A stretch of 63,775 nt of DNA, counting the filler, from Craspedostauros australis (Eukaryota), in assembly GCA_030167865.1 (NCBI GenBank). It is 10 parts of 10 records of this genome, joined end to end, with 100 filler letters (N's around TTAATTAATTAA, not from the genome) between each part and the next. Parts side by side here need not be neighbours in the genome. Positions count along the whole stretch, not along the records: positions 47,931 to 52,111 come from JALAGF010000072.1; positions 52,212 to 57,687 come from JALAGF010000073.1; 8 more parts are not named here. The stretch is one strand, 5' to 3'. The notes beneath the pieces are model-generated. The model had not been told where the DNA came from. It ran no database searches and was given only the letters and a program-made list of their open reading frames with translations. The translations under genes were made by a program, and so were the position numbers. Shown here piece after piece: positions 37,739 to 63,775 of this stretch. Position 1 is the stretch's first letter. Every line of letters begins with the position of its first letter.

Positions 37739-40537
37739 TTATGGATATGATTCATCGAGACCAAGCTGTTCGTTGACACACTTCACGATCTCGTGCTCGA
37801 AAGCCGATAGGCTTGCCGGGAGGTCATCCGTACTGCTGACGTCGCAGTAGCAGTTTTCGCTTTCGTCATCGTCGGCGGCAGCGTTGTCGCCATCGTTGTC
37901 GGCGTCCAGATTCCGGCCGCGACCTCGGACCATCGACGGCGACGTTGACGATGGCTTCGCCGGCTCTGCCATGGATGCAGATTCCAGCCTTTCGCTTCGT
38001 TCTTGGCGGATGCTCTCGCGAGCCAACGCGCGTCGTTGGCGTTGATTCTCAGCTGAATCATCCATGGCGAATGTACCCACGGACGGATTCCTGAACTTGG
38101 TATTGCTTAGGTCTTGTGTCCACCGATCCTTCTGACCCATTGCAGCCACCAGAGCGCGGTTGCGGCTCCGATTGCGACGACGATCACCCCCATCCAAAGT
38201 GTCGAAGAGCTGCACCGTGGATATGTTGCATCCTCGGCACTGGGCCTTCACGTCGTACGTGATCGTCGGCGTCGTATCCGAAGCAGACGTCAACGTAGCC
38301 TCCATGATCGACACGAAATTCGAATCGCACACTTCGAGCGATGCGACTTCGTATGCCACGATGGCGCATTCCTCGAACGCCTCTCGCTCTTCGTCTGACA
38401 GCACGTCCACCGACCTTCCGTTGAGGAAAGAGGCGAAGACATTGTCAAGGGAGATCGTGGCATTGAATGGTGTGGGCTTGCTGGGGCAGCTCGTCTCCTG
38501 GACCTCCTGGATGATTTCGAAGGTGTTACTTGCATCTTCATCCAGCAGTGCGAGGGCTTCCGATGGCAGAGGAGCACGGTTCGCCAGCTTGTTCGAGACA
38601 GGACAGTAGCATAGCTTGGATGACACATCAGATATTGGTTCCCCTGGTGGCGGTAGCGACGACGATGGCGGCGGTGGTAGCGGCAAGCCAGTGTTGAGTG
38701 ATCTTTGGACAGCACTCGTCTGCCATTGGACATCGTCTTCGTCGAAGCTGTCCCAATCGATCTTGTACCGTGGGTCGCTTTCGAGATGTCGGGCATAGTG
38801 GAAGGTAATGTCATCGGAGAAGCTGAATGAGTTGGCGCAGCTGATACAAATCCCAGCCAATGCGTACAGAAACATACTGTAGCCGATGGAGCCTGAGAAG
38901 TCAGTGGAGGTTTGCAGATGGCGTGTTTGTTCGCGTTCCTCGAGTTGCTGCAACATGCGCCTTCGCTTGTCGGAGGCTCCGGTGGTGTCGCGCCGTTCAA
39001 TGGCTGTGAGCTGGCGATGGGTTCTGTCGCAGGTATCTTGAGAGAAGTAGTTGAGTTCGTTGTAAGCGGCGAGAATGTCTTGTTCCAGGTCGGCCATATC
39101 ATCGGCGTCGGATACATTGACTTGATTTGTGTTGATCAAGATGGCGACGGTGCTGGTGAATGTTTCGAACAGATCCGTAGTGTTGGTGCAAGCAGGATCT
39201 TCCTGGACTTGGANNNNNNNNNNNNNNNNNNNNNNNNNNNNNNNNNNNNNNNNNNNNNNNNNNNNNNNNNNNNNNNNNNNNNNNNNNCTCGTCTTCTCGA
39301 GTCCGGCTGCCGTGCTGGCGTCACGTTGCAATGCCCGGGATCGCCTAACTTCTGCCATCTTCTGTTCCAACACGGTGATAAACTCATCCTTGAAGTCGCC
39401 CCGACGGGGACCACGGCAATCCTGGCATGCGCTTTCGGCTTCTGTGCCAGCATCCTCTGGTGTCACTGTCTTGCTGAGCGATTCGAGGGTTGGGTCAGCG
39501 ATTGTTGTAGGAGTGGATGGTTGCACTTCGTCCGAGTTCTTCGTGGTCTTCACCGTGGCAGGTTCCAATGTGTGCTTCTTGAGCATACGGTGCGTCGCAA
39601 ACGACAGACGTCCGCTTGAGTTCTTGTTGGCATCAGATATTGGCGAATGAAGATCGAGATGGTCGGCTGTACGCTCAGCAGTTGCGCCTTTCTTCTGTGG
39701 CATGTCTTTCTTTGTAGGTGCGTCTCGTGGTTCGGGGTGTTGTCCTGGATGAGCGATGGAAGGTTGGGCAGCACTGTCCGAGTTATCAGACAGGAGGACG
39801 CCACGGTCCTCGGCGGTGGCCAGGATATCAGTCAAACGAAGTGTGGCGTCGCCATCATTATTGTTGTTCCCATCAGAGATATCAGCCAACCGCCGACGAG
39901 CGTCGTTGTCGCTGTTGTCGTTGGCATCGACGTCGAAGTCGATGTCCTCAAAGAAGAGCTCGGCGCGTTCGAGGCCATCGACATTGATGGTCTTGCAGCT
40001 GTTGCATTCCAGGAGCATCTCCAGAACCAAAGTCATCTTTCGAGGCTTCTTCTGTTCCATCTTCTTCTCACCAGATGTCCCAGCAAAGCCTTTGACTTCT
40101 GTCGATACGTCGGCGACCCTGCAGTTCTTGACCAACCTCACAGATCCCTGCTGGGGACATGACGCCAAGTTGTTGTAGGCGATCTCAAAGGACTCCGACA
40201 GCATTTGCTTATCTTCGTCGCTCAAGTCTTCTGGGACACCTTTAAGACGAACGAACGCAGCCGTTTCGAAAACCTCAGGCGTCGCCTCGCAGATCACGGA
40301 GGTGTCCGTTTCGTTGTCTTCATCCAGCACATCCCATGTGTCGCCTATGGGCTCTTCCACTGGGCCTTCGAGCACCTCCAGGGCATCCTCATCGAGGGAG
40401 GCGGACACGAAAGTAGTGCCACCCGTACCGTTGCCTGGCATAGATTGGCACAACAGGAGCAGGACCAAGACTATGGTGGTGACTACAAGTCTATGTTGCC
40501 AAAGGCCTCCTCGTTGTCGTTGGTATGTCACCCTCAT
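37739..40537 (-). CDS. Secreted acidic protein with many RxL sites and three Cys-containing repeats (copy A; N gap 39214-39287)
   Basis: Hydrophobic N-terminal segment; three repeats of AY(N/E)...C ... CxxC ... (L/S)F; more than ten RxL motifs. Confidence 0.85.
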   Translation of the reverse strand: MRVTYQRQRGGLWQHRLVVTTIVLVLLLLCQSMPGNGTGGTTFVSASLDEDALEVLEGPVEEPIGDTWDVLDEDNETDTSVICEATPEVFETAAFVRLKGVPEDLSDEDKQMLSESFEIAYNNLASCPQQGSVRLVKNCRVADVSTEVKGFAGTSGEKKMEQKKPRKMTLVLEMLLECNSCKTINVDGLERAELFFEDIDFDVDANDNSDNDARRRLADISDGNNNNDGDATLRLTDILATAEDRGVLLSDNSDSAAQPSIAHPGQHPEPRDAPTKKDMPQKKGATAERTADHLDLHSPISDANKNSSGRLSFATHRMLKKHTLEPATVKTTKNSDEVQPSTPTTIADPTLESLSKTVTPEDAGTEAESACQDCRGPRRGDFKDEFITVLEQKMAEVRRSRALQRDASTAAGLEKTXXXXXXXXXXXXXXXXXXXXXXXXXXQVQEDPACTNTTDLFETFTSTVAILINTNQVNVSDADDMADLEQDILAAYNELNYFSQDTCDRTHRQLTAIERRDTTGASDKRRRMLQQLEEREQTRHLQTSTDFSGSIGYSMFLYALAGICISCANSFSFSDDITFHYARHLESDPRYKIDWDSFDEDDVQWQTSAVQRSLNTGLPLPPPPSSSLPPPGEPISDVSSKLCYCPVSNKLANRAPLPSEALALLDEDASNTFEIIQEVQETSCPSKPTPFNATISLDNVFASFLNGRSVDVLSDEEREAFEECAIVAYEVASLEVCDSNFVSIMEATLTSASDTTPTITYDVKAQCRGCNISTVQLFDTLDGGDRRRNRSRNRALVAAMGQKDRWTQDLSNTKFRNPSVGTFAMDDSAENQRQRRALARESIRQERSERLESASMAEPAKPSSTSPSMVRGRGRNLDADNDGDNAAADDDESENCYCDVSSTDDLPASLSAFEHEIVKCVNEQLGLDESYP

Positions 40538-42931
40538 AGTTGCTGTAGGCTACTGATGGTTGCTGATGGTGAAATGTGTTGCGGTTGGTTGAGTGTTGTA
40601 TTATGTGATTTGATGGTATTCGCAGAATGCAAGATGTGGCTACTTGTGGCGATTGCGTGTCGGCCACCTCTTTCTCTTTGAGTTCCTCGCTGTCTTGTTA
40701 TTATGAGTTACTTGTGTTCGGATGGGGAGGTCCTTTGGGAGGTGCCGCCCTGTCTTCCTCGTCTTCTTTGCACCGCCTCACTTTTTGTTCATCGCAACAA
40801 GTATCAGCCCAAGCATGCATCATGGTGTGCACAGTATACATGAGATGGATTGCCTTCGCGATAGTGCCGACAACGAGAACGACGGCGACTTCACTCGTCT
40901 GCTCTCTCCAGACAAGCGACCCAGAGATCGTGCACAAGTGTTCGTGGAGGGATACGGAAACCGGGAGCGGGGCTGTTGCATGGTGGTAGAGCAGAACAAG
41001 AAGCAAGAAAGACGACAGCCCATGAATCGGTACTTTCGAGTATGCTCCGATACCCAAAGCAGACAAACGCCCCGTTTTTTCTGTTGTCTTGTCCCTCTTG
41101 TTGCGCTCGCACAAACTCTCTACGGCAACTCTTGACGAGAAAAGGTGACATTTGCAGAGTGTGCCACTTTTTGCGATGCGGCCCAAGCAGACTCGGAGGG
41201 TATCAAAGCCAGCCGACCTCAACGTTTCGTCTCAGAGAAGGCGACTGAGCATTCGCGTCAAAGGTGTTGCAGAGATAAAAAAGTGGGCTCAAATGTTTCA
41301 GCACAGCTAAGAAAAGGTGACACACGCAGGCAACTTGATCGTGCAGCGAATACATCGAATCACGAAGACATCGGTCTTGGGCAATACCAATACATCACGA
41401 ATCGTGCATTCTCCGATCACGAGAGGGGCGAATGGAGCGGGGACGTCTTGGATGCGGGTGCAACTTGGAGAGCTCTTGCCCACAAACTGGGACGAAACGG
41501 ATGGACGTCGAGCGCGCGTGGTCCGAGCACAGCATCGAACTCTCTCTTCCGTACAACAACTCTTGTGCAATCGCGTGTGCAGGTGTGAAGGTTGATGTGG
41601 TCTCTGCCATGCTCATCCTCGCACGAGCGGGAACCGCACCAGCAAGGAGAATGTGCGAGATTGTGGATGAGCGTCTTATCTGGCGATGTTGGACCGACGC
41701 AACCTCCTCGGTCCAATGTCTTTGATGTCGCTTTTTGTGCCCTTCGGCGTCAAGAGCGGTGAACATTGGGCATGATCTGCCTCGTGCACGTATCTCTCAT
41801 GCTCGCATGTAACTCCAGAGATCCCAAGGGAGTTGCTCTCTCTCTCTCTCTCTCTGTCTGTCTACAGGTGACTCCAGGTCGCACCACGAGGCCCCCACGT
41901 CACCTCTGATTGCGATTTGTTTGGGAAGTGAGGGGGAATGCAACTCGGAGAAGTGATCATCCCACAGGGGCAGACGCACCATTCCACGCAAACCTTGCAG
42001 CGCGCCTCCAGGGTCGCGACTGATCATTGAACAACTGTCCTGTAGTCGTGCAGAGCAGATCGTTCTTTGCACCACGCCAAGCAAGCTTGAACCTGTCCTG
42101 ACATCACGATGAACTCGTGCGTCGGCACTCTTTCTCAGTTCTTTCCATGTCTATCTCCACAGAATAAGTATTCGCAGAACAGAGGAGACAAGAACAGAAA
42201 CAGAGGAGATAGTGCGTGTCTGTGGAAGTCCGCGCGTCAGCAGTCTTGGATCAGCATGATCTTGTGCGGCCGATGGCGTGTCGCGTCTCGAATGTGCGAT
42301 TGACAATGGGAAGCCTCACGAACCTGTCTCGAGAGTATCCTTTCTTGACAACAACACATGCTTCGATAGGACGGTACAGCAACAGTAGTACCCTCGAAAG
42401 CACTCGGCTCTGTTCTGCCATTCACTATGACTCCACTCTCCAGTTTCAAAAGTATACATTGTTATTGTGCATGTAATTGTGTGTAGAATAGGCAGGCCAT
42501 GCCATTGTCTAGTATGCTCTCCGCGTGTTCAATGTGTGAATGGACGATTCAACTCACTGCAGGGCTCACTGTTGACCGTTGACCAGGTCCCGCCACTCCT
42601 CCCTGTTCAGTCGATCCAGCTTGTTAATCTCATGCTTCAGNNNNNNNNNNNNNNNNNNNNNNNNNNNNNNNNNNNNNNNNNNNNTTAATTAATTAANNNN
42701 NNNNNNNNNNNNNNNNNNNNNNNNNNNNNNNNNNNNNNNNTCGGGTGCAATCCCCGGGCATTCCAGATTTCGTCGTCTGGGGTTCGATTCCTTTCTCTTT
42801 GCCATTTTCTGTTTATCCTAACACACACATCTCCAGGTGTGCAACTGGAATTGAAGGAGGCAAGTCTATTCCAGAGTGCCGAGAGGATCGTATTGGCTTT
42901 GCGATGGAATGTATTACAATGCAATGTGAAT

Positions 42932-45727
42932 TTATGGATATGATTCATCGAGACCAAGCTGTTCGTTGACACACTTCACGATCTCGTGCTCGAAAGCCGA
43001 TAGGCTTGCCGGGAGGTCATCCGTACTGCTGACGTCGCAGTAGCAGTTTTCGCTTTCGTCATCGTCGGCGGCAGCGTTGTCGCCATCGTTGTCGGCGTCC
43101 AGATTCCGGCCGCGACCTCGGACCATCGACGGCGACGTTGACGATGGCTTCGCCGGCTCTGCCATGGATGCAGATTCCAGCCTTTCGCTTCGTTCTTGGC
43201 GGATGCTCTCGCGAGCCAACGCGCGTCGTTGGCGTTGATTCTCAGCTGAATCATCCATGGCGAATGTACCCACGGACGGATTCCTGAACTTGGTATTGCT
43301 TAGGTCTTGTGTCCACCGATCCTTCTGACCCATTGCAGCCACCAGAGCGCGGTTGCGGCTCCGATTGCGACGACGATCACCCCCATCCAAAGTGTCGAAG
43401 AGCTGCACCGTGGATATGTTGCATCCTCGGCACTGGGCCTTCACGTCGTACGTGATCGTCGGCGTCGTATCCGAAGCAGACGTCAACGTAGCCTCCATGA
43501 TCGACACGAAATTCGAATCGCACACTTCGAGCGATGCGACTTCGTATGCCACGATGGCGCATTCCTCGAACGCCTCTCGCTCTTCGTCTGACAGCACGTC
43601 CACCGACCTTCCGTTGAGGAAAGAGGCGAAGACATTGTCAAGGGAGATCGTGGCATTGAATGGTGTGGGCTTGCTGGGGCAGCTCGTCTCCTGGACCTCC
43701 TGGATGATTTCGAAGGTGTTACTTGCATCTTCATCCAGCAGTGCGAGGGCTTCCGATGGCAGAGGAGCACGGTTCGCCAGATTGTTCGAGACAGGACAGT
43801 AGCATAGCTTGAACGACACACCAGATATTGGTTCCCCTGGTGGCGGCAGCGACGACGATGGCGGCGGTGGTAGCGGCAAGCCAGTGTTGAGTGATCTTTG
43901 GACAGCACTCGTCTGCCATTGGACATCGTCTTCGTCGAAGCTGTCCCAATCGATCTTGTACCGTGGGTCGCTTTCGAGATGTCGGGCATACTGGAAGGTA
44001 ATGTCATTGGAGAAGCTGAATGAGTTGGCGCAGCTGATACAAATCCCACCCAATGCGTACAGACCCGCACTGTAGCTGGGGGTTGCGTCGTAAGTGTAGG
44101 TTCGCAGATGGCGTGGTTGTTCGTGTTCCTCGAGTTGCTGCAACATGCGCTTTTGCTTGTTGGAGGCTCTGGTGGTGTTGCGCCGTTCAATGGCTGTGAG
44201 CTGGCGATGGGTCTTGTCGCAGGTATCTTGAGAGAAGTAGTTGAGCTCGTTGTAAGCGGCGATAATGTCTTGTTTCAGGTCGGCCATATCATCGGGGTCG
44301 GACACATTGACTTGATTTGTGTTGATCAAGATGGCGACGGTGCTGGTGAATGTTTCGAACAGATCCGTAGTGTTGGTGCAAGCAGGATCTTCCTGGACTT
44401 GGATGATGCTCCCGATTTCGAAAGTGGTTGGTCCCGGTCCTGGAGGTGGTGGGGGCTCCGAAAGACCGCGCAAGGCCCTCGTCTTCTCGAGTCCGGCTGC
44501 CGTGCTGGCGTCACGTTGCAATGCCCGGGATCGCCTAACTTCTGCCATCTTCTGTTCCAACACGGTGATAAACTCATCCTTGAAGTCGCCCCGACGGGGA
44601 CCACGGCAATCCTGGCATGCGCTTTCGGCTTCTGTGCCAGCATCCTCTGGTGTCACTGTCTTGCTGAGCGATTCGAGGGTTGGGTCAGCGATTGTTGTAG
44701 GAGTGGATGGTTGCACTTCGTCCGAGTTCTTCGTGGTCTTCACCGTGGCAGGTTCCAATGTGTGCTTCTTGAGCATACGGTGCGTCGCAAACGACAGACG
44801 TCCGCTTGAGTTCTTGTTGGCATCAGATATTGGCGAATGAAGATCGAGATGGTCGGCTGTACGCTCAGCAGTTGCGCCTTTCTTCTGTGGCATGTCTTTC
44901 TTTGTAGGTGCGTCTCGTGGTTCGGGGTGTTGTCCTGGATGAGCGATGGAAGGTTGGGCAGCACTGTCCGAGTTATCAGACAGGAGGACGCCACGGTCCT
45001 CGGCGGTGGCCAGGATATCAGTCAAACGAAGTGTGGCGTCGCCATCATTATTGTTGTTCCCATCAGAGATATCAGCCAACCGCCGACGAGCGTCGTTGTC
45101 GCTGTTGTCGTTGGCATCGACGTCGAAGTCGATGTCCTCAAAGAAGAGCTCGGCGCGTTCGAGGCCATCGACATTGATGGTCTTGCAGCTGTTGCATTCC
45201 AGGAGCATCTCCAGAACCAAAGTCATCTTTCGAGGCTTCTTCTGTTCCATCTTCTTCTCACCAGATGTCCCAGCAAAGCCTTTGACTTCTGTCGATACGT
45301 CGGCGACCCTGCAGTTCTTGACCAACCTCACAGATCCCTGCTGGGGACATGACGCCAAGTTGTTGTAGGCGATCTCAAAGGACTCCGACAGCATTTGCTT
45401 ATCTTCGTCGCTCAAGTCTTCTGGGACACCTTTAAGACGAACGAACGCAGCCGTTTCGAAAACCTCAGGCGTCGCCTCGCAGATCACGGAGGTGTCCGTT
45501 TCGTTGTCTTCATCCAGCACATCCCATGTGTCGCCTATGGGCTCTTCCACTGGGCCTTCGAGCACCTCCAGGGCATCCTCATCGAGGGAGGCGGACACGA
45601 AAGTAGTGCCACCCGTACCGTTGCCTGGCATAGATTGGCACAACAGGAGCAGGACCAAGACTATGGTGGTGACTACAAGTCTATGTTGCCAAAGGCCTCC
45701 TCGTTGTCGTTGGTATGTCACCCTCAT
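42932..45727 (-). CDS. Same secreted RxL-rich protein (copy B, 931 aa, complete)
   Basis: Translation identical to copy A except in one central block. Confidence 0.87.
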   Translation of the reverse strand: MRVTYQRQRGGLWQHRLVVTTIVLVLLLLCQSMPGNGTGGTTFVSASLDEDALEVLEGPVEEPIGDTWDVLDEDNETDTSVICEATPEVFETAAFVRLKGVPEDLSDEDKQMLSESFEIAYNNLASCPQQGSVRLVKNCRVADVSTEVKGFAGTSGEKKMEQKKPRKMTLVLEMLLECNSCKTINVDGLERAELFFEDIDFDVDANDNSDNDARRRLADISDGNNNNDGDATLRLTDILATAEDRGVLLSDNSDSAAQPSIAHPGQHPEPRDAPTKKDMPQKKGATAERTADHLDLHSPISDANKNSSGRLSFATHRMLKKHTLEPATVKTTKNSDEVQPSTPTTIADPTLESLSKTVTPEDAGTEAESACQDCRGPRRGDFKDEFITVLEQKMAEVRRSRALQRDASTAAGLEKTRALRGLSEPPPPPGPGPTTFEIGSIIQVQEDPACTNTTDLFETFTSTVAILINTNQVNVSDPDDMADLKQDIIAAYNELNYFSQDTCDKTHRQLTAIERRNTTRASNKQKRMLQQLEEHEQPRHLRTYTYDATPSYSAGLYALGGICISCANSFSFSNDITFQYARHLESDPRYKIDWDSFDEDDVQWQTSAVQRSLNTGLPLPPPPSSSLPPPGEPISGVSFKLCYCPVSNNLANRAPLPSEALALLDEDASNTFEIIQEVQETSCPSKPTPFNATISLDNVFASFLNGRSVDVLSDEEREAFEECAIVAYEVASLEVCDSNFVSIMEATLTSASDTTPTITYDVKAQCRGCNISTVQLFDTLDGGDRRRNRSRNRALVAAMGQKDRWTQDLSNTKFRNPSVGTFAMDDSAENQRQRRALARESIRQERSERLESASMAEPAKPSSTSPSMVRGRGRNLDADNDGDNAAADDDESENCYCDVSSTDDLPASLSAFEHEIVKCVNEQLGLDESYP

Positions 45728-47930
45728 AGTTGCTGTAGGCTACTGATGGTTGCTGATGGTGAAATGTGTTGCGGTTGGTTGAGTGTTGTATTATGTGATT
45801 TGATGGTATTCGCAGAATGCAAGATGTGGCTACTTGTGGCGATTGCGTGTCGGCCACCTCTTTCTCTTTGAGTTCCTCGCTGTCTTGTTATTATGAGTTA
45901 CTTGTGTTCGGATGGGGAGGTCCTTTGGGAGGTGCCGCCCTGTCTTCCTCGTCTTCTTTGCACCGCCTCACTTTTTGTTCATCGCAACAAGTATCAGCCC
46001 AAGCATGCATCATGGTGTGCACAGTATACATGAGATGGATTGCCTTCGCGATAGTGCCGACAACGAGAACGACGGCGACTTCACTCGTCTGCTCTCTCCA
46101 GACAAGCGACCCAGAGATCGTGCACAAGTGTTCGTGGAGGGATACGGAAACCGGGAGCGGGGCTGTTGCATGGTGGTAGAGCAGAACAAGAAGCAAGAAA
46201 GACGACAGCCCATGAATCGGTACTTTCGAGTATGCTCCGATACCCAAAGCAGACAAACGCCCCGTTTTTTCTGTTGTCTTGTCCCTCTTGTTGCGCTCGC
46301 ACAAACTCTCTACGGCAACTCTTGACGAGAAAAGGTGACATTTGCAGAGTGTGCCACTTTTTGCGATGCGGCCCAAGCAGACTCGGAGGGTATCAAAGCC
46401 AGCCGACCTCAACGTTTCGTCTCAGAGAAGGCGACTGAGCATTCGCGTCAAAGGTGTTGCAGAGATAAAAAAGTGGGCTCAAATGTTTCAGCACAGCTAA
46501 GAAAAGGTGACACACGCAGGCAACTTGATCGTGCAGCGAATACATCGAATCACGAAGACATCGGTCTTGGGCAATACCAATACATCACGAATCGTGCATT
46601 CTCCGATCACGAGAGGGGCGAATGGAGCGGGGACGTCTTGGATGCGGGTGCAACTTGGAGAGCTCTTGCCCACAAACTGGGACGAAACGGATGGACGTCG
46701 AGCGCGCGTGGTCCGAGCACAGCATCGAACTCTCTCTTCCGTACAACAACTCTTGTGCAATCGCGTGTGCAGGTGTGAAGGTTGATGTGGTCTCTGCCAT
46801 GCTCATCCTCGCACGAGCGGGAACCGCACCAGCAAGGAGAATGTGCGAGATTGTGGATGAGCGTCTTATCTGGCGATGTTGGACCGACGCAACCTCCTCG
46901 GTCCAATGTCTTTGATGTCGCTTTTTGTGCCCTTCGGCGTCAAGAGCGGTGAACATTGGGCATGATCTGCCTCGTGCACGTATCTCTCATGCTCGCATGT
47001 AACTCCAGAGATCCCAAGGGAGTTGCTCTCTCTCTCTCTCTCTCTGTCTGTCTACAGGTGACTCCAGGTCGCACCACGAGGCCCCCACGTCACCTCTGAT
47101 TGCGATTTGTTTGGGAAGTGAGGGGGAATGCAACTCGGAGAAGTGATCATCCCACAGGGGCAGACGCACCATTCCACGCAAACCTTGCAGCGCGCCTCCA
47201 GGGTCGCGACTGATCATTGAACAACTGTCCTGTAGTCGTGCAGAGCAGATCGTTCTTTGCACCACGCCAAGCAAGCTTGAACCTGTCCTGACATCACGAT
47301 GAACTCGTGCGTCGGCACTCTTTCTCAGTTCTTTCCATGTCTATCTCCACAGAATAAGTATTCGCAGAACAGAGGAGACAAGAACAGAAACAGAGGAGAT
47401 AGTGCGTGTCTGTGGAAGTCCGCGCGTCAGCAGTCTTGGATCAGCATGATCTTGTGCGGCCGATGGCGTGTCGCGTCTCGAATGTGCGATTGACAATGGG
47501 AAGCCTCACGAACCTGTCTCGAGAGTATCCTTTCTTGACAACAACACATGCTTCGATAGGACGGTACAGCAACAGTAGTACCCTCGAAAGCACTCGGCTC
47601 TGTTCTGCCATTCACTATGACTCCACTCTCCAGTTTCAAAAGTATACATTGTTATTGTGCATGTAATTGTGTGTAGAATAGGCAGGCCATGCCATTGTCT
47701 AGTATGCTCTCCGCGTGTTCAATGTGTGAATGGACGATTCAACTCACTGCAGGGCTCACTGTTGACCGTTGACCAGGTCCCGCCACTCCTCCCTGTTCAG
47801 TCGATCCAGCTTGTTAATCTCATGCTTCAGNNNNNNNNNNNNNNNNNNNNNNNNNNNNNNNNNNNNNNNNNNNNTTAATTAATTAANNNNNNNNNNNNNN
47901 NNNNNNNNNNNNNNNNNNNNNNNNNNNNNN

Positions 47931-49990
47931 ATCGCTTCGTTTCCAACAACGACATCGATGAGATGCTGCACACGTGCGAGCAGGAAGGTCTCGTGGAGAT
48001 GTCGATGGGATTCAAGCGTGCGTCCAGCCACCCTCCGACTACGTCAGACAAACTCCCAAGCAGAACGCTCAGTGGGATCAAGGGGCACAAGAAGAGGAAG
48101 AAGNCCAAATCNTCCACCATCTACAATTTCAGCCACGACAAGGTCCAGGAAGCGGCACTGGCCATGCTGGATCAAGAGCAGCTGTCCGAGCTGAAGTACC
48201 GAGTTGGCGAAATTCTGCTTTTCGGTCTTCCCGATGACGAGCTCACCGAGCGCATCTTCATGGTCGCCAATCTCGTCAACACGAGGTTCGACCTCATCCC
48301 TGATACCAACAAGAGCGAACGTGGCAAGCGTGTCATGATGCTGAACTTCGATGCCGGAAGCAAGGCGGTGGGCTGCTCTTCGTTCCACTTGGCATCTCGG
48401 TACTTCAGGAACGCCATCAATCTGCTTCCCAACGGTCATTGGGAGACGATGCAGGAAGAGACGCTTGAGATCTACTCAGCCGCGGCCGAATGCGCATACG
48501 TCACGTCAAATCTTGACCGTGCCCGCCGATATTGCAACGAGATCATTGAATCCAAGTGTGACATCCTGGACAAGGTCGCTGCGTATCACACTCTCATCGA
48601 CGTGGCAGTCGCCGAGGTGCAGAAAGACATTAGTGGATCCACAGCGATTCAGCTCTGCGTGCATCTTCTGGCTCAGCTTGAATGCAAACTTCCAAAGCCC
48701 GGTATCAGACGGACACTGAGCACCACCTTTGGTCTCCTGAAGCTTCAGCGCGCAGCTCGCATGTTGACACAAGACATGATCAATGATCTTCCTTTGGTCA
48801 CCGAGAGGAAAGACGATGCCATAATGAAGACGTTGGGAAAACTGCTTGCAGTGTGCTACTCCCATGATCCCGAAATGTCGCCCGTCGTGGCGCTCCGCAT
48901 GATGCACGCGACATTCAAGAACGGGATTTCCGAGATCTCTCCCGTCGCCTTTGTTTCGCTAGGGATTATCGCAGGTATGGCCTTCGGGGACGGCGAGACA
49001 AGAGGTATATTCGGTCGATCAGCATTAGGCATACTAGCAAGGATGGATCAGCCAGCCACAGCAGCAAACATCATTTTCCAGTACCATGCATTGATACTGC
49101 ACTGGAGCCGGCCGATCGAAGAGCTCAAAGAGCCATCATTGGAGACATATCGACAGGGGATGTCTGTAGGAGACGTGGAAACTGCTGGGTGGAGCATCAC
49201 TACATACATATGGTTGTGCTTTTCCACCGGAGATTCGTTGCAACAAGTCGACGCAGACTATGCAACGTACTCGAAAATCCTGACGGATTTCAATCAGAAT
49301 GCGCAGGTGAAGTTCTTCCAATGCTGGTGGCAGGCTGTGCTTAACTTGCGAGGGGCTTCCAGCCACCGCATCTTGCTCATCGGCGATGCATTCGACGAGC
49401 GCGATAACACGAATAGCGACGGCAACGCCGTCAGTGCCATGCACAAACGAGGTGTCAATATCTCCAAAACTACGCTGTGCGGATTCTTTGGAGAATACGA
49501 AGAGGGAGCAAAGCTGTCCGCTCACAGCGTCGATCAGACCATCGCCGATTACCCAAGTTCGCCCTCCATATCATCGATACTGTTCCGAACAGCGTTCTGC
49601 TGCTTTGCTGCCTCGCATTCAGCGACCGCAGATCCCAAGTACCGGAAGATCGGCAAACGGTGCCTCAAGAAACTCAAGGGTTGGAGCAAGCGTGGGCATC
49701 CCAACTGCCATCACTACATCATGATCCTCGGCGCAGAACGACAGTTCTTGCGTGGCAACCACGACGGCGCCACCAACTTGTACATGAAAGCTATCGACAG
49801 CGCTGGCGGACGTGGATTCATCCAAGATCAAGCGTTGGCAAATGAACGACTCGGAGATTGTGGTATGAAATGCGGGAAGAGCGAGGACGCGAGATGTCGA
49901 TACGAGGAGTCGAAGCGGCTCTACGCTCTGTGGGGAGCAACGAGGAAGGTGGATGATCTCCAATCAAAGATGCAACGCATCTTCGGATAG
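47931..49990 (+). CDS. C-terminal half of STAND/AAA_16-type ATPase with TPR-like helical region (variant A)
   Basis: YNFSHDKVQEAAL, NFDAGSKA, GFIQDQALANERLG and YALWGATRKV, typical of the region after the ATPase in HstK-like proteins; 5'-truncated. Confidence 0.87.
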
Positions 49991-50988
49991 GTTTGCTGTG
50001 ACGAGGAGGCTACGGGCAATTGCCAAATGTAAATAGAAGTTCGGCAGAGTTAAGTTGAGTGGAGTAGTGGTAGAGTAGAGTGGAGTGGAGTGGAGTGGAG
50101 TACTTTGTTGTACGACGTGACAGCGGCTGAGATGCGTGAGGACAAAACACGCACACATTCATCCAGACAGATACAGATATGCAAACAAACAGACACATCG
50201 ACATACATACACCGTTGATTCAAAGTGACACACAGCCAATCGTGAAAATCATCTCCAATGAAAGAAGTCTGGCGAATTCATGATCTCTTGTTCGTCACAA
50301 TTTTATCACCAACAACGTCGAGAAGCGGATGATAAAATCGACAGTGGGCACAGAGGCAATCCTACTTGTGCGTACGACTACCGGTACGACCGTGCGAAGT
50401 TCAAATGTGTTATGACTTCGACGAGGAACGCAACGAACAGTTTATCTATGATCCTTCGCAGAAGTGGATGGACAAGGGAACAACCGCGCCCTGGCCCCAC
50501 ACCGCCAGCGAGAAAAGGAGGATCGGACCCGCATCATTCTCGTTCAGCATGAATGTGAATGACTGGTAGCTCTTGTTTATGGCCAGGTTGGTCCTTAACC
50601 TTGTAGTTGGCCGGTCACAACCCAGAACGCCCCGGCGGTTCCGCACCTCGTTTTGTTTGCACGATCAACATGGCAAACGTTCGCGAAACAATCGCAAGAA
50701 GGAGATTTCTGGACGCGGGTGCTGTCATGCATGCGGATATATATTAACTTCGGGAGAGTGTTTCGGCACTGTGGCGGTGATGGAGTTGGCATTGGACTGC
50801 GAAAGTGTCGAAGAGAGGAAGCGCAAACAACAATCACCCCAAACACAGAGCACATTACGTCACCACACCACCACGCCTCCGAATAGGACCTGCGAGTACA
50901 ACCTACAGAAGAGATCTATGGGGAGATCTGGGACCATATTTTCTCATCAATCATCTCGGATTGTTGCAATAACCCAAGGACGTGCAAC

Positions 50989-52111
50989 ATGACCTCCGTC
51001 CACGACATGAAGCCACACACTGCCACCGTTGGAGCCATCGCCAGCACCCTGAGCCATCAGGGCGCGGCCTCGAGCAACGCCAACCATCAAGCCGACCTCA
51101 TGAACAAGTTGCCGCCCCCAATTGCGCTGACCTCGGATGAGACAAGCATGAGCGATGGTAGTTCCACAATCTACACTGAGATCGATGGGCATTATGACAA
51201 CTTGCCGTTTCACAGCGTCGGGTTGATCGGAAGAGACCAGGAGCTCCGGTTGCTCCGCAAGGCATTCCACTCAACATGTCTGCACGAGAAAGACGGGTTC
51301 CAATCCACCATCAATAATGGTGGCGTGCATGCCTCCTCCAGTACCAGTCAACGCTCAGCGATAGCATCCTCCATGATGATCTCAACCTCGAAAAGGACCC
51401 TCGTTCTCATCTCCGGACATTCGGGAAGCGGGAAGACTGCCCTGGCCATGCAGGTCAAGCGATTTGCATCTGCTCAAGGCAATGACACCCACGACGACAA
51501 CCGCCAGCATCGCCCCTTCCACGGATTCTTCGTCTCTGGGAAATGTGAGATCTCCAAAATGAACGCGGAACAACCATACGCCGGTATCAAATCAGCATTG
51601 GCGGATCTCTGCAACCAGATCCTTTGCCTGCCGAGAGACGAACATGACCTCGACCACGCTGTGGAAATCACAGTGCCATTGATGAAGTCTGTTGGAGAAT
51701 CCACATCATCGGAAACAGCCACAGGCTCTACGGCGGCCACCTCATCCTCGTCGAACTCATCATCGTCAATGGGCGAAGCAGATACAGATGCAGATGGGGA
51801 TGTTGGCACACCTCAGAAGCGCATGCCGCACCAAACATCTTCAACCACGACTCCGGAGTACTCCTCTGCTTCCGACACGGCCGCCGGTGGTGGCAATCAT
51901 GACGATGGCGATGACCACCGTCGTCTGTCCATCCTACGAAAGCTCCTCAAGAGAGGACTGACGAGAAGTGAGATACAGGTACTCTCTAATGTCATCCCGG
52001 AGCTACCTCAAGCCGTCTATGGGAAGGAGTACATCAACCTGGTTGTTGGTAACGGTCTACAAGGCAACACGGAGGGTAAGGGCGCCAGCGACGAGGCTTC
52101 CGTCATGAGCG
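50989..52111 (+). CDS. N-terminal part of STAND/AAA_16-type ATPase (3'-truncated)
   Basis: LIGRDQELRLL, Walker A LISGHSGSGKTALA, FVSGKC and QPYAGI. Confidence 0.87.
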
Positions 52112-52211
52112 NNNNNNNNNNNNNNNNNNNNNNNNNNNNNNNNNNNNNNNNNNNNTTAATTAATTAANNNNNNNNNNNNNNNNNNNNNNNNNNNNNNNNN
52201 NNNNNNNNNNN

Positions 52212-54271
52212 ATCGCTTCGTTTCCAACAACGACATCGATGAGATGCTGCACACGTGCGAGCAGGAAGGTCTCGTGGAGATGTCGATGGGATTCAAGCGT
52301 GCGTCCAGCCACCCTCCGACTACGTCAGACAAACTCCCAAGCAGAACGCTCAGTGGGATCAAGGGGCACAAGAAGAGGAAGAAGACCAAATCATCCACCA
52401 TCTACAATTTCAGCCACGACAAGGTCCAGGAAGCGGCACTGGCCATGCTGGATCAAGAGCAGCTGTCCGAGCTGAAGTACCGAGTTGGCGAAATTCTGCT
52501 TTTCGGTCTTCCCGATGACGAGCTCACCGAGCGCATCTTCATGGTCGCCAATCTCGTCAACACGAGGTTCGACCTCATCCCTGATACCAACAAGAGCGAA
52601 CGTGGCAAGCGTGTCATGATGCTGAACTTCGATGCCGGAAGCAAGGCGGTGGGTTGCTCTTCGTTCCACTTGGCATCTCGGTACTTCAGGAACGCCATCA
52701 ATCTGCTTCCCAACGGTCATTGGGAGACGATGCAAGAAGAGACGCTTGAGATCTACTCAGCCGCGGCCGAATGCGCGTACGTCACGTCAAATCTCGACCG
52801 CGCCCGCCGATACTGCAACGAGATCATTGAATCCAAGTGTGACATCCTGGACAAGGTCGATGCGTATCACACTCTCATCGACGCGGGAGTAGCAGAATTG
52901 CGGAACGATGGGAATGAATCCACAGCTCTTCGGTTGTGCTTGGATGTCCTGTCGCAACTAGGCTGCCAACTTCCAAAGCCCGGTATCAGACGGACACTGA
53001 GCACCATCTTTGGTCTTCTGAAGCTCAAGCGAACTGTTCACACCTTGACGACAGAATCGATCGATGACCTTCCTCTGATGACCAACAGGAAGGAGGATGC
53101 AATCATGCAGATGCTGCAAAAGCTGATCATCGTAGCATATTTTGCTGATGCGAAATCCATCCCGTGCATTTCGCTAGCAAGCATGAAGCGGACGATCAAA
53201 CATGGCGTGTCTGAGCATTCTGCTATGGCTTTTGTCTACCTAGGCTTAACCATGGGGGCCTTCATGGGCGACTTTCATGCCCGAGAAGTTTTTGGACAAG
53301 CAGCTTTCGACATCTTGGAAAGGGTGAACGAGCCAGCTTCAGCAGCGACCGCAGTTTTTCAGTGCTGGGCACTGGTTCGGCATTGGAAGCGACCGATTGA
53401 ACAGCTCAAAGAGCCATTGATGGAGGCCTATCACATGGGAATGTCGGTCGGTAATGTATACGCAGGATCCTGGAGCATCGCCATCTACTCTTTGGTCAAC
53501 ATCATCATCGGAACCCCGTTGTCAAAGATCGATGCGGACTGCGCCACGTATTCAAAAGTTCTGCTCGATTTCGACCAGAATGCGCAGTATGCCTTCTTCG
53601 CCACGATGTGGCAGGTCGTGCTCAACCTGCGCGGAGCCTCTAAACATCGCATCTTGCTCATTGGTGATGCATTCGACGAGAGAAGCGATTTAAATGATGG
53701 TGACAGCACGATCAATGCTGTTCACAAGAGATCAGTGCAAATGGCCAAGCTACAGTTATGCGTCTACTTCGAAGACTATGGACAGGGTGCAAGCCTTGCC
53801 ATCGGCCTCGTTGACCACGTAATGCGCGATTTTCCCGGCTCGCCTTCTTTGCCTCCGGCATTATTCCGAATGGCCCTTTGCTGCCGAGCGGCATCGCATT
53901 CGAAGACCGCAAGTCGCAAGTACAAGAAGATCGCTGTTCGTTGCGTGAAAGACCTCAAGGCTTGGAGCAAGCAAGGTCATCCAAACGGCCATCACTACAT
54001 CATGATCCTCGACGCAGAACGTCACTTCCTGCGCGGAAATCACGATTTCGCCACCAAGATGTATCTGAAGGCTATCGAGAGTTCTGCCGCTCGCGGGTTC
54101 ATCCAAGACCAAGCGTTGGCAAATGAACGGCTCGGAGACTGTGGCATGAAATGCGGGAGGAGAGAGGATGCAAGATCCCGATACGAGGAATCAGAGCGAT
54201 TGTATACCCTGTGGGGAGCAACCAGAAAGGTGGAAGATCTTCAATTGAAGATCCAAGGTATCTTCGGATAG
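52212..54271 (+). CDS. C-terminal half of STAND/AAA_16-type ATPase with TPR-like region (variant B)
   Basis: Same motifs as variant A; first about 205 aa essentially identical, remainder diverged. Confidence 0.87.
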
Positions 54272-55219
54272 CTTCCGACTGTCCAAGACGCACTGAGTTG
54301 TATGGAGGACGGAAGATGGAAAACCGTCTGATAATTCATACAACATACCGCAAAACAACACATAACAATCTTCCGTTTGCACGGGATGATCCCCGAATGG
54401 GATAACTTCGTAATACTATGAGCTAGCGAGTGCTTGTGACCTCTACCCTTGATCTCGTTCGCGCATCTGCTTACACGCCTTTTCGCGAATTTCTCAGATC
54501 GCGTGGAAATATTCCTATTCGTACTTTCAGCATAGTACTCCAATACCTGTTCGTGGGCAGCATGGCGGATAGCGTCTGCACAATCTACATAGAAGACTTA
54601 GTCTGGCATCGACTCATTGGATTGCACAAATGAAACGAACACCGTGTTGCCGGTCAGACGATACATCGTCTCCCCTGTTGATGGATCAGCCACGATGGGT
54701 GGTTTCTGACAGATTGCCATCACGCCACCACCACACAAATACCGCCAATCAGTTCCTCATGTTTGGGCCTTTTGTTCCTCTCGAGTGGCATTGACATTTA
54801 TTTGCAAATCAGACGTGTGTGAGTGCATACGCTTGTTGGACGTGTACGGATATTTTGGGGCTGTAAAGTAGTCGTCAATATCGGATCATGCCCTTGTGAT
54901 ACAATCACACCGCACAGCGCCAATCAAGACCAACAAAGAAAGGCGAGTAGTCGCGGGTGACATCATCATCCTCACAAAGTCGAATTGCTTCCAGTCCTCT
55001 CCCAAAACTTACACTTTCTCCGCGGAACAGTTTCGTGCGCTGGTGTGGGTCAGCACCATCGAATCCGTCCATAGGTTGAACCGGATCCTCGAGACACATC
55101 TTTCAACAACAAGGCCTCTCTTCTTTTCTCTGCAACACCACAAGCACTTGACCTCGATGCCAAGATTCCAACCAGAAGAGGCGCAAAAATCGACCAGGAC
55201 ATCAACGTACCACATGATC

Positions 55220-55445
55220 ATTGTACCATAGCATCGCTGCACCTCGGCATCACTGTTTTCACGGCACATTGTTTCACGGCACATTGTACCACGGCACCAT
55301 TGTACCACGGCGCATTGTTTCACGGCGCATTGTACCACGGCGCATTGTACCACGGCGCATTGTTTCACGACACATTGTACCAAGGCATCAGTGTACCAAG
55401 GCATCACTGTTTCACGGCATCATTTCACCACGGCATCACGGCAGC
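55220..55445. repeat. 15-bp minisatellite CACGGC(A/G)CATTGT(AC/TT)
   Basis: About eight well-conserved units plus degenerate flanking units. Confidence 0.9.
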
Positions 55446-55523
55446 ACAGCATCATATAATACAAGCAAGCAAGGCAACCAAGGACTCGGTCAACCCCTTC
55501 TGCGAAACTCATCGACGAAGAAC

Positions 55524-57687
55524 ATGTTGCGGACAGCAGTGACAAACAATGATTCCAAGCCCGCGGCTGGCGGAGCAAGCCGCAGAGCACCAAACTTTCA
55601 CGATGCAACTATCGACACCAGCAACAGCCATCGTCAGGAAGCTCTGAACAAACTATTGCCATCGATTGGACTAGTCTCCGTTGACACAAGCATGTTCAAC
55701 GGTAGTGACACATTCCAAAGCGGAAGTGACAGCGACGGAAATAATGAGGATCTGCCATTCCACAGCGTCGGGCTGATTGGAAGAGGCAAGGAACTCCGGT
55801 TGCTGCGCAAGGTATTCCACTCAACCTGCGGACAGGTGCAAGGAAGATCTGTGTTCGGTCCTATTACCAGCGACAGAGATGGGAGCAACCATTCCGCAGA
55901 TTTCCTGAGAGTTTCCACAACTAGTGCTGCAACTGCCACCACTAATAACAGTGGCACTAATACCTCTGACGAATTCCGTATGTCACCGATGATCCCATCC
56001 TCGAAGAGGAGCCTCGTTCTCATCTCCGGACATTCGGGAAGCGGGAAGACTGCCCTGGCCATGCAGGTCAAGCGATTTGCATCTGCTCAAGGCAATGACA
56101 CCCACGACGACAACCGCCAGCATCGCCCCTTCCACGGATTCTTCGTCTCTGGGAAATGTGAGATCTCCAAAATGAACGCGGAACAACCATACGCCGGTAT
56201 CAAATCAGCATTGGCGGATCTCTGCAACCAGATCCTTTGCCTGCCGAGAGACGAACATGACCTCGACCACGCTGTGGAAATCACAGTGCCATTGATGAAG
56301 TCTGTTGGAGAATCCACATCATCGGAAACAGCCACAGGCTCTACGGCGGCCACCTTATCCTCGTCGAACTCATCATCGTCAGTGGGGGGAGCAGGTACAC
56401 CTCGGACGCGCATGCCGCACCAAACATCTTCAACCACGACTCCAGCGTACTCCTCTTCTTCCGGCACAGCCGCCGGTGGTGGCAATCATGACGATGGTGA
56501 CGACCACCGTCGTCTGTCCATCCTACGAAAGCTCCTCAAGAGAGGACTGAAGAGAAGTGAGATACAGGTACTCTCTAATGTCATCCCGGAGCTACCTCAA
56601 GCCATCTACGGACAGAACCGCATCGATGCTATCGCCAACGACTGCAACGAGAAGCCCAAAGACGACACATCCGTCATGAGCGCATCCACCATGACCATGC
56701 CATACAAACAGAGCAAAGCCAGACCATGGAACGAACGCATCGGATATCGAGCACACGGTGACAGACTCAAGTTCGCTCTGCGAAAGCTCATTCAGATCAT
56801 CTGCAACTACTGCCCCCTCATCTTCGTCATCGATGATCTACAATGGGCAGACAAGGCATCGCTCGACATCCTCAAGTCATGGATGCTGGACAGCAAGAAC
56901 TCATCGCTCATGATCATCGGATGCTACCGATCCAACCTCCTGGAAGAGAACGATGTTCTCAAGACTACGCTGACATCATTGGATGAATCCAAGCGGGAGC
57001 GTGCCCTCCGCATCGTCAAGCTTCCCATCCAAGATCTGGAGGTGCATCACATCAACGAGCTGCTGTGTCGGCTGTTGGCTGTTCCAACGGATGGTCACGC
57101 ACTCAATGACCACAGTGCTAATGGCGCTGACAATGCCGACGATGTGGACGATGCTGATGATATTGATGATGCTGACGAGATGAATGGCCGATCGAAGGTC
57201 GTGAAGGAGCTTGCTGATGTGGTACATCAAAAGACGGCTGGGAATCCCTTCTTCGTCCAGCGCTTCCTTCATTCCTTGGTTGACGAAGGCCTGCTCAAGT
57301 ACAACGGAGCGAAGCAGCCGTCACCGCCATCACTATCGGCATCGGCAGCATCCAACACCAAGAACGGTTTCTCGTGGGCATGGTCGTGGAACGATACCGA
57401 CATTCGATCCAAGTCACCATCCACAAGCAACATCATCGATCTCATGAAGGACAAGCTGCAGCAGGTGCAGAATGCTCGTCAGATCCTGCCCATCGCAGCA
57501 TGTCTGGGCGCATCTTTCTCACACTCGACCATCTGCATCGTGATGCGTGGTCTATCCATCCATTCGGCACACTCCGCGTTCGTCCGCAAGCTGTTCGGCA
57601 TCAATCGCTTCGTTTCCAACAACGACATCGATGAGATGCTGCACACGTGCGAGCAGGAAGGTCTCGTGGAGATGTCGATGGGATTCA
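55524..57687 (+). CDS. N-terminal half of STAND/AAA_16-type ATPase
   Basis: Walker A GHSGSGKT, Walker B FVIDDLQWAD, IIGCYRSN and KTAGNPFFV (GxP). Last 84 nt equal the first 84 nt of both C-half contigs. Confidence 0.9.
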
Positions 57688-61654: not shown

Positions 61655-63225
61655 TCTGGAAGGGACTCAAATCTGAGTTTGTAGATATCGAGTGCTGTGG
61701 GTGACAGTACTGTGACCTACGCGCCATAGTGTACAGTAGATTGCCCATATGTGCATAGCAAATGTCAACCACAATGAAATCCAACCCGGCGGGAACTTAC
61801 AACACATCCCAAAGTGTCTGGTCACGAAGTATGAGGTCCTAGATCCGTCTGGAAGGTAGTCAAATCGATGGATCTAGATTTCGAGTGGTGCTGTGGGTGG
61901 TAGTGCGATGACCTACGCACAATACTGTGCAGTAGATTGCCCATATGTGCATATGAATGTCAACCACAATCGAATCCAACCCGGCGGGAACTTACAACAC
62001 ACCCCAAAGTACCTGGTCACGAAGTATGAGGCCTCCAATCCATCTGGAAGGCATCCATATCTGAGAATCTAGATTTCGAGTGGTGCTGTGGGTGGTAGTA
62101 CTATGAGCTACGCACAATACTGTGCAGTAGATTGCCCATATGTGCATAGCAAATGTCAACCTCAATAAAATCCAACCTGGCGGAAACTTACAACACACCC
62201 CAAAGTGTCTGGTCACGAAGTATGAGGTCTCCAATCCATCTCGAAGGCATCCATATCTGAGAATCTAGATTTCGAGTGGTGGTGTGGGTGACAGTACTGT
62301 GACCTATGCACAATACTGTACAGTAGATTGCCCATATGTGCCTATAAATGTCAATCACCATGAAATCCAACCCGGCGGGAACTTACAACACACCCCAAAG
62401 TACCTGGTCACGAAGTATGAGGTCTTAGACCCGTCTGGAAGGTAGTCAAATCGATGGATCTAGATTTCGAGTGGTGTTGTGGGTGGCAGTACTACGAGCT
62501 ACGCACCAGAGTGTACAGTAGATTGCCAATATGTGCATATAAAATGTCAATCACCATGAAATCCAACCCGGCGCGCACGTACACCACACCCCAAAGTGTC
62601 TGGTCACGAAGTATGAGGCCTCCAATCCATCTCGAAGGCATCCATATCTGAGAATCTAGATTTCGAGTGGTGGTGTGGGTGGTAGTACTGTGACCTATGC
62701 ACAATACTGTACAGTAGATTGCCCATATGTGCATATAAAATGTCAATCACCATGAAATCCAACCCGGCGCGCACGTACACCACACCCCAAAGTGTCTGGT
62801 CATGAAGTATGAGGCCTCCAATCCGTCTGGAAGGCATCCATATCTGGATGTGGAGATTTTGTGTGGTGCTGTGTGTGGTAGTACTGTGACCTACGCGCCA
62901 TAGTGTACAGTAGATTGCCCATATGTGCATATGAATGTCAACCACAATCGAATCCAACCCGGCGGGAACTTACAACACACCCCAAAGTACCTGGTCACGA
63001 AGTATGAGGCCTCCAATCCGTCTGGAAGGCATCCATATCTGGACGTGGAGATTTTGTGTGGTGTTGTGGGTGGTAGTACTATGAGCTACGCACAATACTG
63101 TGCAGTAGATTGCCCATATGTGCATATAAAATGTCAATCACCATGAAATCCAACCCGGCGGGAACTTACAACACACCCCAAAGTGTCTGGTCACGAAGTA
63201 TGAGGTCTCCAATCGGTCAGGAATG
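61655..63225. repeat. Tandem satellite, 195-196-bp unit, about eight copies
   Basis: Anchor CCAACC(C/T)GGCG at 61781, 61976, 62172, 62367, 62563, 62759, 62954 and 63150. Confidence 0.95.
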
Positions 63226-63289
63226 TATCGGTGTGGAAGGGTCAGTCTAGCCTGATGCCAAGGTCACCGTGCGGCCTCACAAGGGACCG

Positions 63290-63418
63290 CTCGAAATCTA
63301 GATTCTCAGATATGGATGCCTTCCAGATGGATTGGAGGCCTCATACTTCGTGACCAGACACTTTGGAGTGTGTTGTAAGTTCCCGCCGGGTTGGATTTCA
63401 TTGTGGTTGACATTCATA
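63290..63418 (-). repeat. Inverted partial copy (about 130 bp) of the satellite unit
   Basis: CTCGAAATCTAGATTCTCAGATATGGATGCC...CCCGCCGGGTTGGATTTCATTGTGGTTGACATTCATA is the reverse complement of the unit. Confidence 0.93.
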
Positions 63419-63775
63419 GGCACGTATGTGTTGGAAATCCGGGGTGGTATGATAGTAGAGAACTAATCGTTTGTTAGAATCTACTTCTCTGAACTGTGAG
63501 CTCTTCATCGCTCTCAATTGCAAAGTCCAATCTCCTCCTGAGATTGCCATGGGTCCCTCTGTTGGTCTAGCATGCATCCATCTTGCATTCATTGCAAATT
63601 CATCATGGACATGCATGCTCCACCGAGTACCCCATGTTCGTGCACAAAAGCTCGTTGTCCTCCGCTGATAGTTTCGATGCTTTAGACATCACCGAGTCGT
63701 AGGCATCACACAGGTCGGTCCATTCAACCAGATCACGGTCTCCCATTCGTCACGGGAACACCTCGGTTGGGAGCT

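Follow-up and report, generated by a model that had tools for sequence, protein, structure and literature searches.

The window analysed here is a 63,775-nt stretch of the diatom Craspedostauros australis (GCA_030167865.1), in which artificial linkers (N44-TTAATTAATTAA-N44) connect 10 contigs. Two of them, contig A (47931-52111, 4181 nt, the seventh contig) and contig B (52212-57687, 5476 nt, the eighth), represent with moderate confidence parts of two or more paralogues that lie next to each other head to tail, each apparently intronless and encoding a protein of ~1370-1380 amino acids (aa). The protein joins an ATPase module of the STAND type (signal transduction ATPases that contain numerous domains) to a long predicted tail resembling tetratricopeptide repeats (TPR). 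It is well supported that tandem paralogues stand head to tail at this locus and that their core is homogenised or collapsed. This reading of the locus is based on contigs A and B plus relatives from other organisms. The two contigs contain the following features:

47931-49990, plus strand: 3' gene part of contig A, 685 codons and a TAG stop, with the end of the winged-helix region, the KKRKK loop and the TPR-like solenoid
49991-50988, no strand: spacer A, 998 nt between two family genes
50989-52111, plus strand: 5' gene part of contig A, 374 codons, open at the 3' end, with Walker A motif GHSGSGKT at 51415-51438 and an AAA_16 match at 9.8e-10
52212-54271, plus strand: 3' gene part of contig B, 685 codons and a TAG stop, a TPR-like solenoid as modelled by AlphaFold2
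54272-55523, no strand: spacer B, 1252 nt, holding a 15-nt tandem repeat at 55260-55402
55524-57687, plus strand: 5' gene part of contig B, 721 codons, open at the 3' end, with an AAA_16 match at 4.8e-14
56670-57687, plus strand: shared segment present as a single copy in the window, where the 3' end of contig A rejoins
57604-57687, plus strand: 84-nt end of contig B, equal to the starts of contigs A and B, which closes a cycle in the assembly graph

Both contigs display the same organization on the plus strand: an open reading frame (ORF) that is open at its 5' end runs to a TAG codon (ending at 49990 in contig A and at 54271 in contig B), and is followed by a spacer and a second ORF that begins with an ATG (50989 and 55524, each with an in-frame stop upstream) and is open at its 3' end. 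Three copies of the 84-nt string, 100% identical, are found at 47931-48014, 52212-52295 and 57604-57687 (repeat family D9), and all of them lie in one common reading frame. The ORFs and the 84-nt identity confirm the original prediction, which had described both contigs as a C-half, a spacer and an N-half, with the end of contig B identical to the two contig starts. Read across the overlap into either 3' part, the 5' part of contig B gives a continuous frame of 4140 nt, or 1379 aa, as had also been predicted (an intronless protein of 704 + 675 residues). Along this joined frame, alignment with diatom full-length proteins (1133-1352 aa) is colinear. In P0271, the alignment of the 5' part ends at residue 595 and that of the 3' part begins at residue 575; these limits agree with the 28-aa overlap, and the join of the 5' and 3' parts is therefore biologically right.

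Comparison of spacer A (998 nt) with spacer B (1252 nt) yields no blastn high-scoring segment pair at E <= 1e-5, in keeping with their earlier description as unrelated. None of the eight spacer ORFs tested, including the four longest of spacer A, has a Pfam match, and neither spacer contains a tRNA. Just upstream of the start codon in contig B, the imperfect 15-nt tandem repeat (CACGGCACATTGTTT-like, 55260-55402) inflates several spurious ORFs of spacer B. In both contigs the linkage of the 3' part, the spacer and the same-strand 5' part runs through copy-specific sequence (48600-51374 in contig A, 52880-55987 in contig B), and hence the head-to-tail adjacency of family genes, also part of the prediction, is real. 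If the contigs were instead an assembly artefact, dispersed paralogues would have been joined at shared repeats into chimeric contigs and there would be no true tandem. The contigs do break exactly at repeat boundaries, contig A contains ambiguous bases (N at 48104 and 48112), and a second block around the P-loop is common to both contigs (51375-51674 = 55988-56287, 99% identity). However, the copy-specific stretches hold no internal repeat at which a false join could have formed, and we regard an artefact of this kind as very improbable.

The last 13 nt of contig A are the same as positions 56670-56682 of contig B, and it is here that the two protein sequences converge again. This return of contig A to contig B at 56670 was not part of the original prediction, and it makes contig A an alternative path to 52212-56682 of contig B. 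Positions 56683-57603 are present only once, and both paths begin with identical sequence: contigs A and B form a bubble on a cycle, one arm each, and have ~1.5 kb of identical sequence in common. The common block comprises 56670-57687 together with the initial 440-600 nt of each contig. For the two 3' parts the longest identical run reaches 442 nt, against a maximum of 55 nt in 2000 column shuffles, and in their first 300 nt the third codon positions are identical in 99 of 99 cases, which shows that the identity of the core is not a product of protein-level constraint. Identity of the 3' parts then falls gradually along the gene, from 99% through 96, 87, 80 and 72% to 56-66%. We attribute the core identity to gene conversion or unequal crossing-over in the recent past; collapse in the assembler or the consensus may have exaggerated it. 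The ambiguous bases of contig A lie in the two codons directly after KKRKK, which suggests unresolved variation among copies. In the scenario we propose, the assembler would have broken the locus at the shared block, leaving two circularly permuted contigs, and both gene ends (the N-terminus and most of the TPR sensor) would be anciently diverged and under purifying selection.

The two 3' parts share 72% aa identity over 685 codons aligned without a gap or a stop, and the N-termini of the two copies are barely alignable. Over codons 215-685 of the 3' part, pairwise comparison of A and B gives 1.15 synonymous substitutions per site (dS) and 0.30 non-synonymous ones (dN), a dN/dS of 0.26; every 50-codon window that yields a ratio stays at or below 0.49, a weak test with dS near saturation. 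Judged from these sequences, both copies are probably functional, in view of the ungapped, stop-free codons and the dN/dS, and selection looks purifying in the diverged sensor part.

A scale for allelic divergence is available within the window. The fifth and sixth contigs (37548-42640 and 42741-47830) have the same 40-mers at start and end, and their identity is 97.7% along the first 1666 nt and 100% in the other 3353 nt. They resemble a pair of haplotype paths that remained separate contigs, and on the minus strand each has a 935-aa ORF without a Pfam match. As this pair differs by 2.3% at most, contigs A and B, with dS ~1.15 and unalignable spacers, lie far beyond the allelic scale. We thus reject alleles of one locus and retain the paralogues that the original prediction had called them. 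A related possibility is that each chromosome carries two genes, with A and B representing the same intergenic junction (3' end of gene 1, spacer, 5' end of gene 2) from very diverged haplotypes or from the homeologues of a hybrid or polyploid, and not consecutive units of a single array. The fifth and sixth contigs demonstrate that alternative paths with the same ends were kept separately, the bubble made by A and B is of the same type, and an allopolyploid diatom is on record (bioRxiv 10.1101/2021.11.10.468027, in its accessible portion). Against this, the one clear haplotype pair differs by 0-2.3%, whereas A and B combine a dS of ~1.15 with spacers that are unequal in length and unalignable, and synonymous-site identity over 1.5 kb between old homeologues would itself need recent conversion. 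Two genes per chromosome therefore appear unlikely.

Three or more genes, and collapse by the assembler, are plausible. The same graph fits an array of at least three genes, two arrays, diverged two-gene haplotypes or a higher-copy array. It could also be read as a high-copy tandem or an extrachromosomal circle, with contig B as one complete repeating unit of 5392 bp and contig A as a variant unit of ~5102 bp. There is indeed an in-frame overlap of 84 nt between the end of contig B and its start, so that the contig closes on itself, but the same 84 nt starts contig A and the join of B to B is not singled out; moreover, nothing resembling a replication or maintenance function is found in the unit by Pfam on the spacer ORFs and the tRNA scan. 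We give this reading very little credence and return to neighbouring paralogues with a common core.

The N-terminal half of the encoded protein is assigned to AAA_16 (PF13191), with 53.6 bits for the 5' part of contig B and 39.6 bits for that of contig A against a Pfam gathering threshold of 32.6. NACHT is sub-threshold in the 5' part (E 0.0099, 16.2 bits against a cut-off of 26.7), the nSTAND families fall below the Pfam threshold and NB-ARC is not among the matches; Pfam also reports no leucine-rich repeat (LRR) family in the gene parts. From the N-terminus, the 5' part of contig B encodes a disordered region, Walker A, a Ser/Thr-rich insert, Walker B, GCYRS, GNPFF and winged-helix elements. 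Walker A reads GHSGSGKT (56028-56051 in contig B, 51415-51438 in contig A) and Walker B VIDDLQWAD, with DDLQWAD at 56832-56852 of contig B; further along contig B are GCYRS (56919-56933) and KTAGNPFF, with GNPFF at 57240-57254. An alignment of the family with 38 rows shows GxxGxGK, DD..W.D, R463 and T565/G567/N568 to be invariant or nearly so, so that the P-loop, the DDLQWAD Walker B and the GxP motif named in the original prediction are both present and conserved. We take R463 of GCYRS to be the sensor-1 arginine and GNPFF to be the GxP-type motif.

Leipe, Koonin and Aravind (in 2004) are said to have listed as STAND hallmarks a Walker A of the form GxxGxGK[ST], a Walker B of the form hhhhDD, a sensor-1 arginine and a GxP-type motif. 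The layout reportedly given by the same authors has a winged helix after the NTPase and helical domain and then a repeat superstructure, with multimerisation that depends on ligand and ATP. The proteins encoded here display these hallmarks of sequence and layout: Walker A and B, the arginine and GxP-type motifs, the winged helix and the repeat tail. Between Walker A and Walker B both copies also contain a disordered, low-complexity insert of ~70 residues rich in Ser, Thr and Gly (56280-56530 and 51670-51950), with an 8-residue indel between copies A and B. Relatives have a long insert at this place as well, their AAA_16 match extending over ~200-300 residues where the profile has 167 positions.

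AlphaFold2 models the 5' part with a mean predicted local distance difference test score (pLDDT) of 69.4, a well-folded core and disorder at residues 1-66, 107-147, 245-314, 381-398 and 516-525. Winged-helix elements appear as a helix-hairpin at residues 548-616 of P0001 and 5-66 of the C-half models. Structural comparison of the N-half model gives Cdc6/ORC proteins (AAA+ plus winged helix) at Z 13.8-12.0 with 290-323 residues aligned, MalT (8bob_D) at Z 11.1 with a root-mean-square deviation of 5.2 over 284 aligned residues, and also Avs5 (Z 10.6) and two ATPases from archaea, 2fna and 2qen. Foldseek returns weak AAA+ matches only (the best is ClpC, E 4.6e-4), and a sequence search of the PDB produces only matches at the level of the P-loop. 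The models support an N-half that is a predicted nucleotide-binding oligomerisation domain (NOD) of the AAA+/STAND type with a winged helix.

The C-terminal half is confidently predicted to be a TPR-like solenoid, a superhelix of ~600 aa. The AlphaFold2 model of the 3' part of contig B (pLDDT 88.4, predicted template modelling score 0.82) is all helical, with ~30 helices. A first fold search places TSK/BRU1, TTC7B, Tom70 and subunits of the anaphase-promoting complex (APC) at the top; a second finds the APC chain 4ui9_O at Z 17.7 (421 residues aligned), the degron receptor APPBP2 at Z 17.4, and the peptide-binding proteins NprR, Rap and PlcR at Z 12.6-14.5. Neighbours of the 3' part in a protein atlas are bacterial and diatom clusters without a family, together with TPR_12 or TPR_MalT clusters. 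With TPR solenoids leading both fold searches and a Pfam match to AAA_16, the predicted combination of a STAND ATPase with a long helical TPR-like tail is upheld. The tail model has one disordered loop, at residues 27-59, which carries KKRKK. This cluster resembles a nuclear localisation signal (48089-48103 in contig A, within 52370-52393 in contig B), and its loop, with pLDDT below 50, is inserted in the winged-helix region.

No kinase, GAF, cyclase or effector domain is found by Pfam in the gene parts or in the eight spacer ORFs. The same holds for 40 relatives, picked among the long and high-ranking ones of ~160 hits: all 40 contain AAA_16, and at E <= 1e-5 kinase, GAF, cyclase and His-kinase domains are missing from every one of them. 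The claim that the protein lacks kinase, GAF and cyclase domains is thus extended to its relatives, whose additional matches are AAA_22 (7), NPHP3_N (2), SNAP (1) and further AAA-type domains in one protein. Pfam gives no GerE/LuxR match, and the protein ends in TPR-like helices. None of the PADLOC models matches the NTPase or the sensor; the only match is a spurious one to Cas2 (E 0.0059) on the disordered N-terminus.

To establish the range of the family, we analyzed the results of an exhaustive search of 1.84 billion representatives, which returned 9297 proteins with E up to 0.001; of these, 2940 have E <= 1e-10 and 32 have E <= 1e-30. The top matches are 1075-1352 aa long and 38-45% identical; since no protein exceeds 45% identity, there is no close relative in the collections searched. 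All 18 effector-less relatives that bear organism names come from diatoms. Several species have more than one: at least 3 are found in Stauroneis constricta, 4 in Seminavis robusta, 3 each in Cylindrotheca closterium, C. fusiformis and Bacillariaceae sp., and 2 in Epithemia clementina. A quick maximum-likelihood tree of the sensor region (45 rows, LG+G4, with Shimodaira-Hasegawa-like approximate likelihood ratio test (SH-aLRT) support only; P0292 omitted as too short and P0122 as redundant) places the two copies of the window as sisters (SH-aLRT 100) within a clade with Stauroneis paralogues (95). All but three of the diatom-type rows form one clade (35 rows, SH-aLRT 100), which lies apart from five named bacterial PknK-like rows. 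Seminavis paralogues are scattered over deep subclades, and close cross-taxon pairs join C. closterium with Bacillariaceae sp., two taxa that are perhaps very near relatives. Single-protein scans of metagenome contigs with the C-half from the window and with P0130 gave no confirmed locus, and one scan of viral contigs gave no relative. A literature search that did not extend to supplements and non-open papers found no study of this diatom branch. The genes are members of an uncharacterised, old, diatom-wide and multi-copy branch of a known kind of protein.

The closest counterparts are unstudied diatom homologues: CAB9530260.1 of Seminavis robusta ('Transcriptional regulator'), an 'Orc1-like AAA ATPase domain-containing protein' of Cylindrotheca closterium and MMETSP transcripts of Stauroneis constricta. 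Like the genes in the window, they encode ~1070-1350 aa with AAA_16 and a colinear helical tail and no other Pfam domain; they differ in being only 25-45% identical, and their names are automatic. Of the 120 listed proteins longer than 1252 aa, ~113 have both a protein-kinase domain and PF13191, and their identities are 23-31%. Most of these kinase-AAA_16 relatives also contain GAF and His-kinase domains, and one is named hstK. The 3' part matches PknK at 1.2e-25, and the NCBIfam model TOMM_kin_cyc gives a far sub-threshold match over the Walker B region. These matches bear out the proposed kinship of the ATPase module with bacterial HstK-like kinases. The AAA_16 module and the helical region that follows it in bacterial hstK/PknK kinases are homologous to the diatom proteins, but the latter lack the kinase, GAF, His-kinase, cyclase or PP2C domain. 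E. coli MalT and other STANDs with a TPR sensor (PH0952) resemble the diatom protein in the order of NOD, helical domain, winged helix and TPR-like sensor; unlike MalT/LAL regulators, the diatom protein has no LuxR-type DNA-binding domain and its host is eukaryotic.

The arrangement of a STAND module with TPR is typical of many immune sensors. Animal, plant and fungal nucleotide-binding leucine-rich repeat receptors (NLRs) and bacterial Avs proteins are alike in joining a STAND NTPase to a repeat sensor and in forming tandem paralogues. The diatom NTPase, however, is of the AAA_16 type and not NACHT or NB-ARC, and no LRR or WD40 accompanies it; unlike NLRs and Avs, the protein has no CARD, TIR, PYD or nuclease effector, and no PADLOC model for Avs matches it.

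By analogy with MalT, the domain order (a disordered N-terminus of ~70 aa, an AAA_16 STAND module of the MalT clade with its insert, the winged helix with the KKRKK loop, and the TPR superhelix) suggests a switch. At rest the protein would be an ADP-bound monomer, auto-inhibited by its sensor. A ligand, most likely a peptide or a protein, would bind the TPR groove and open the NOD, and the opened NOD would exchange ADP for ATP and multimerise. An ADP rest state, opening by ligand, ATP binding and multimers are described for MalT and other STANDs in PMC4381067, PMC6468293 and PMC10427625, in the accessible portions of these papers. Because nothing is fused to the protein as an output, the output would come through a recruited, separate partner, for which the disordered N-terminus and the TPR surface are candidate docking sites. 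The KKRKK loop hints at nuclear import, and the two paralogues would differ in what each senses.

Several points weigh against our account of the locus and its product. Gene order and copy number are derived from two contigs only, and the exact identity of the core could partly be a consensus artefact, with ambiguous bases present in contig A. The 5' part of contig A is incomplete, its Walker B and remainder being assumed to equal the shared segment, and small in-frame introns may be present in the ~1379-aa frame. The structural matches of the N-half are tied, with Cdc6/ORC, MalT, Avs5 and many AAA+ proteins all at Z 10-14, and do not discriminate between them. Finally, the mechanism is drawn by analogy with MalT and TPR-bearing STANDs.

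The original prediction went further and saw here a diversifying sensor cluster, possibly of diatom innate immunity. On this account the genes would be a cluster of NLR-like, intracellular immune receptors whose TPR tails are positively selected against viral, bacterial or oomycete molecules. An architecture of STAND and TPR is reported for many immune sensors (PMC13581612, accessible portion), the genes are in tandem and undergo gene conversion, the NTPase core being conserved and the sensor and N-terminus variable, diatom species have several paralogues each, and Avs5 is among the fold matches of the N-half. The remaining evidence points the other way. The sensor dN/dS of 0.26, with 50-codon windows at or below 0.49, gives no indication of positive selection, weak as this test is with dS near saturation. 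No PADLOC model matches the NTPase or the sensor, NACHT is sub-threshold, Pfam finds no LRR in the gene parts, and no death or signalling effector domain turned up. This is an old family that spans genera: deep paralogue clades are common to diatom genera and close pairs cross taxa, so that lineage-specific bursts are not the only pattern, and the single viral-contig scan produced no relative. The prediction of a diversifying immune cluster is not supported by these results and seems doubtful to us, its case being taken from the architecture and the tandem arrangement alone. We hold a broader proposal to be improbable as well, namely that raphid pennate diatoms have an NLR-analogous surveillance of their own, derived from an AAA_16 STAND module of the bacterial-kinase kind, with the array as a recognition locus. 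The sensors of this system, which lack effectors, would evolve through gene conversion and tandem duplication; for signalling they would recruit a separate partner, possibly in the nucleus by way of the KKRKK loop.

Other parts of the window contain repeats and gene groups of a different kind. A satellite at 61692-63233 consists of ~196-nt units in at least 7-8 tandem copies of 66-95% identity, and at 63256-63428 lies a block in inverse orientation, 79-88% complementary to these units. A 31-kb contig carries three large ORFs, each ending in MORN repeats (10650-13355 on the plus strand, 18901-21066 and 22136-24874 on the minus strand; Pfam E 1e-17 to 1e-20), apparently a further group of local paralogues.

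Among primary producers, diatoms are of major importance. To our knowledge, almost nothing is known of how they sense pathogens or intracellular signals. The present analysis defines a diatom-wide, multi-copy STAND family of large switch proteins with a modelled TPR sensor and no built-in output. Short-read assemblies break and permute loci of this kind, with the consequence that such genes are missed or split in annotation. In one genome, copies of the family stand in tandem and exchange sequence, and the genes of the family are concrete candidates for functional study.

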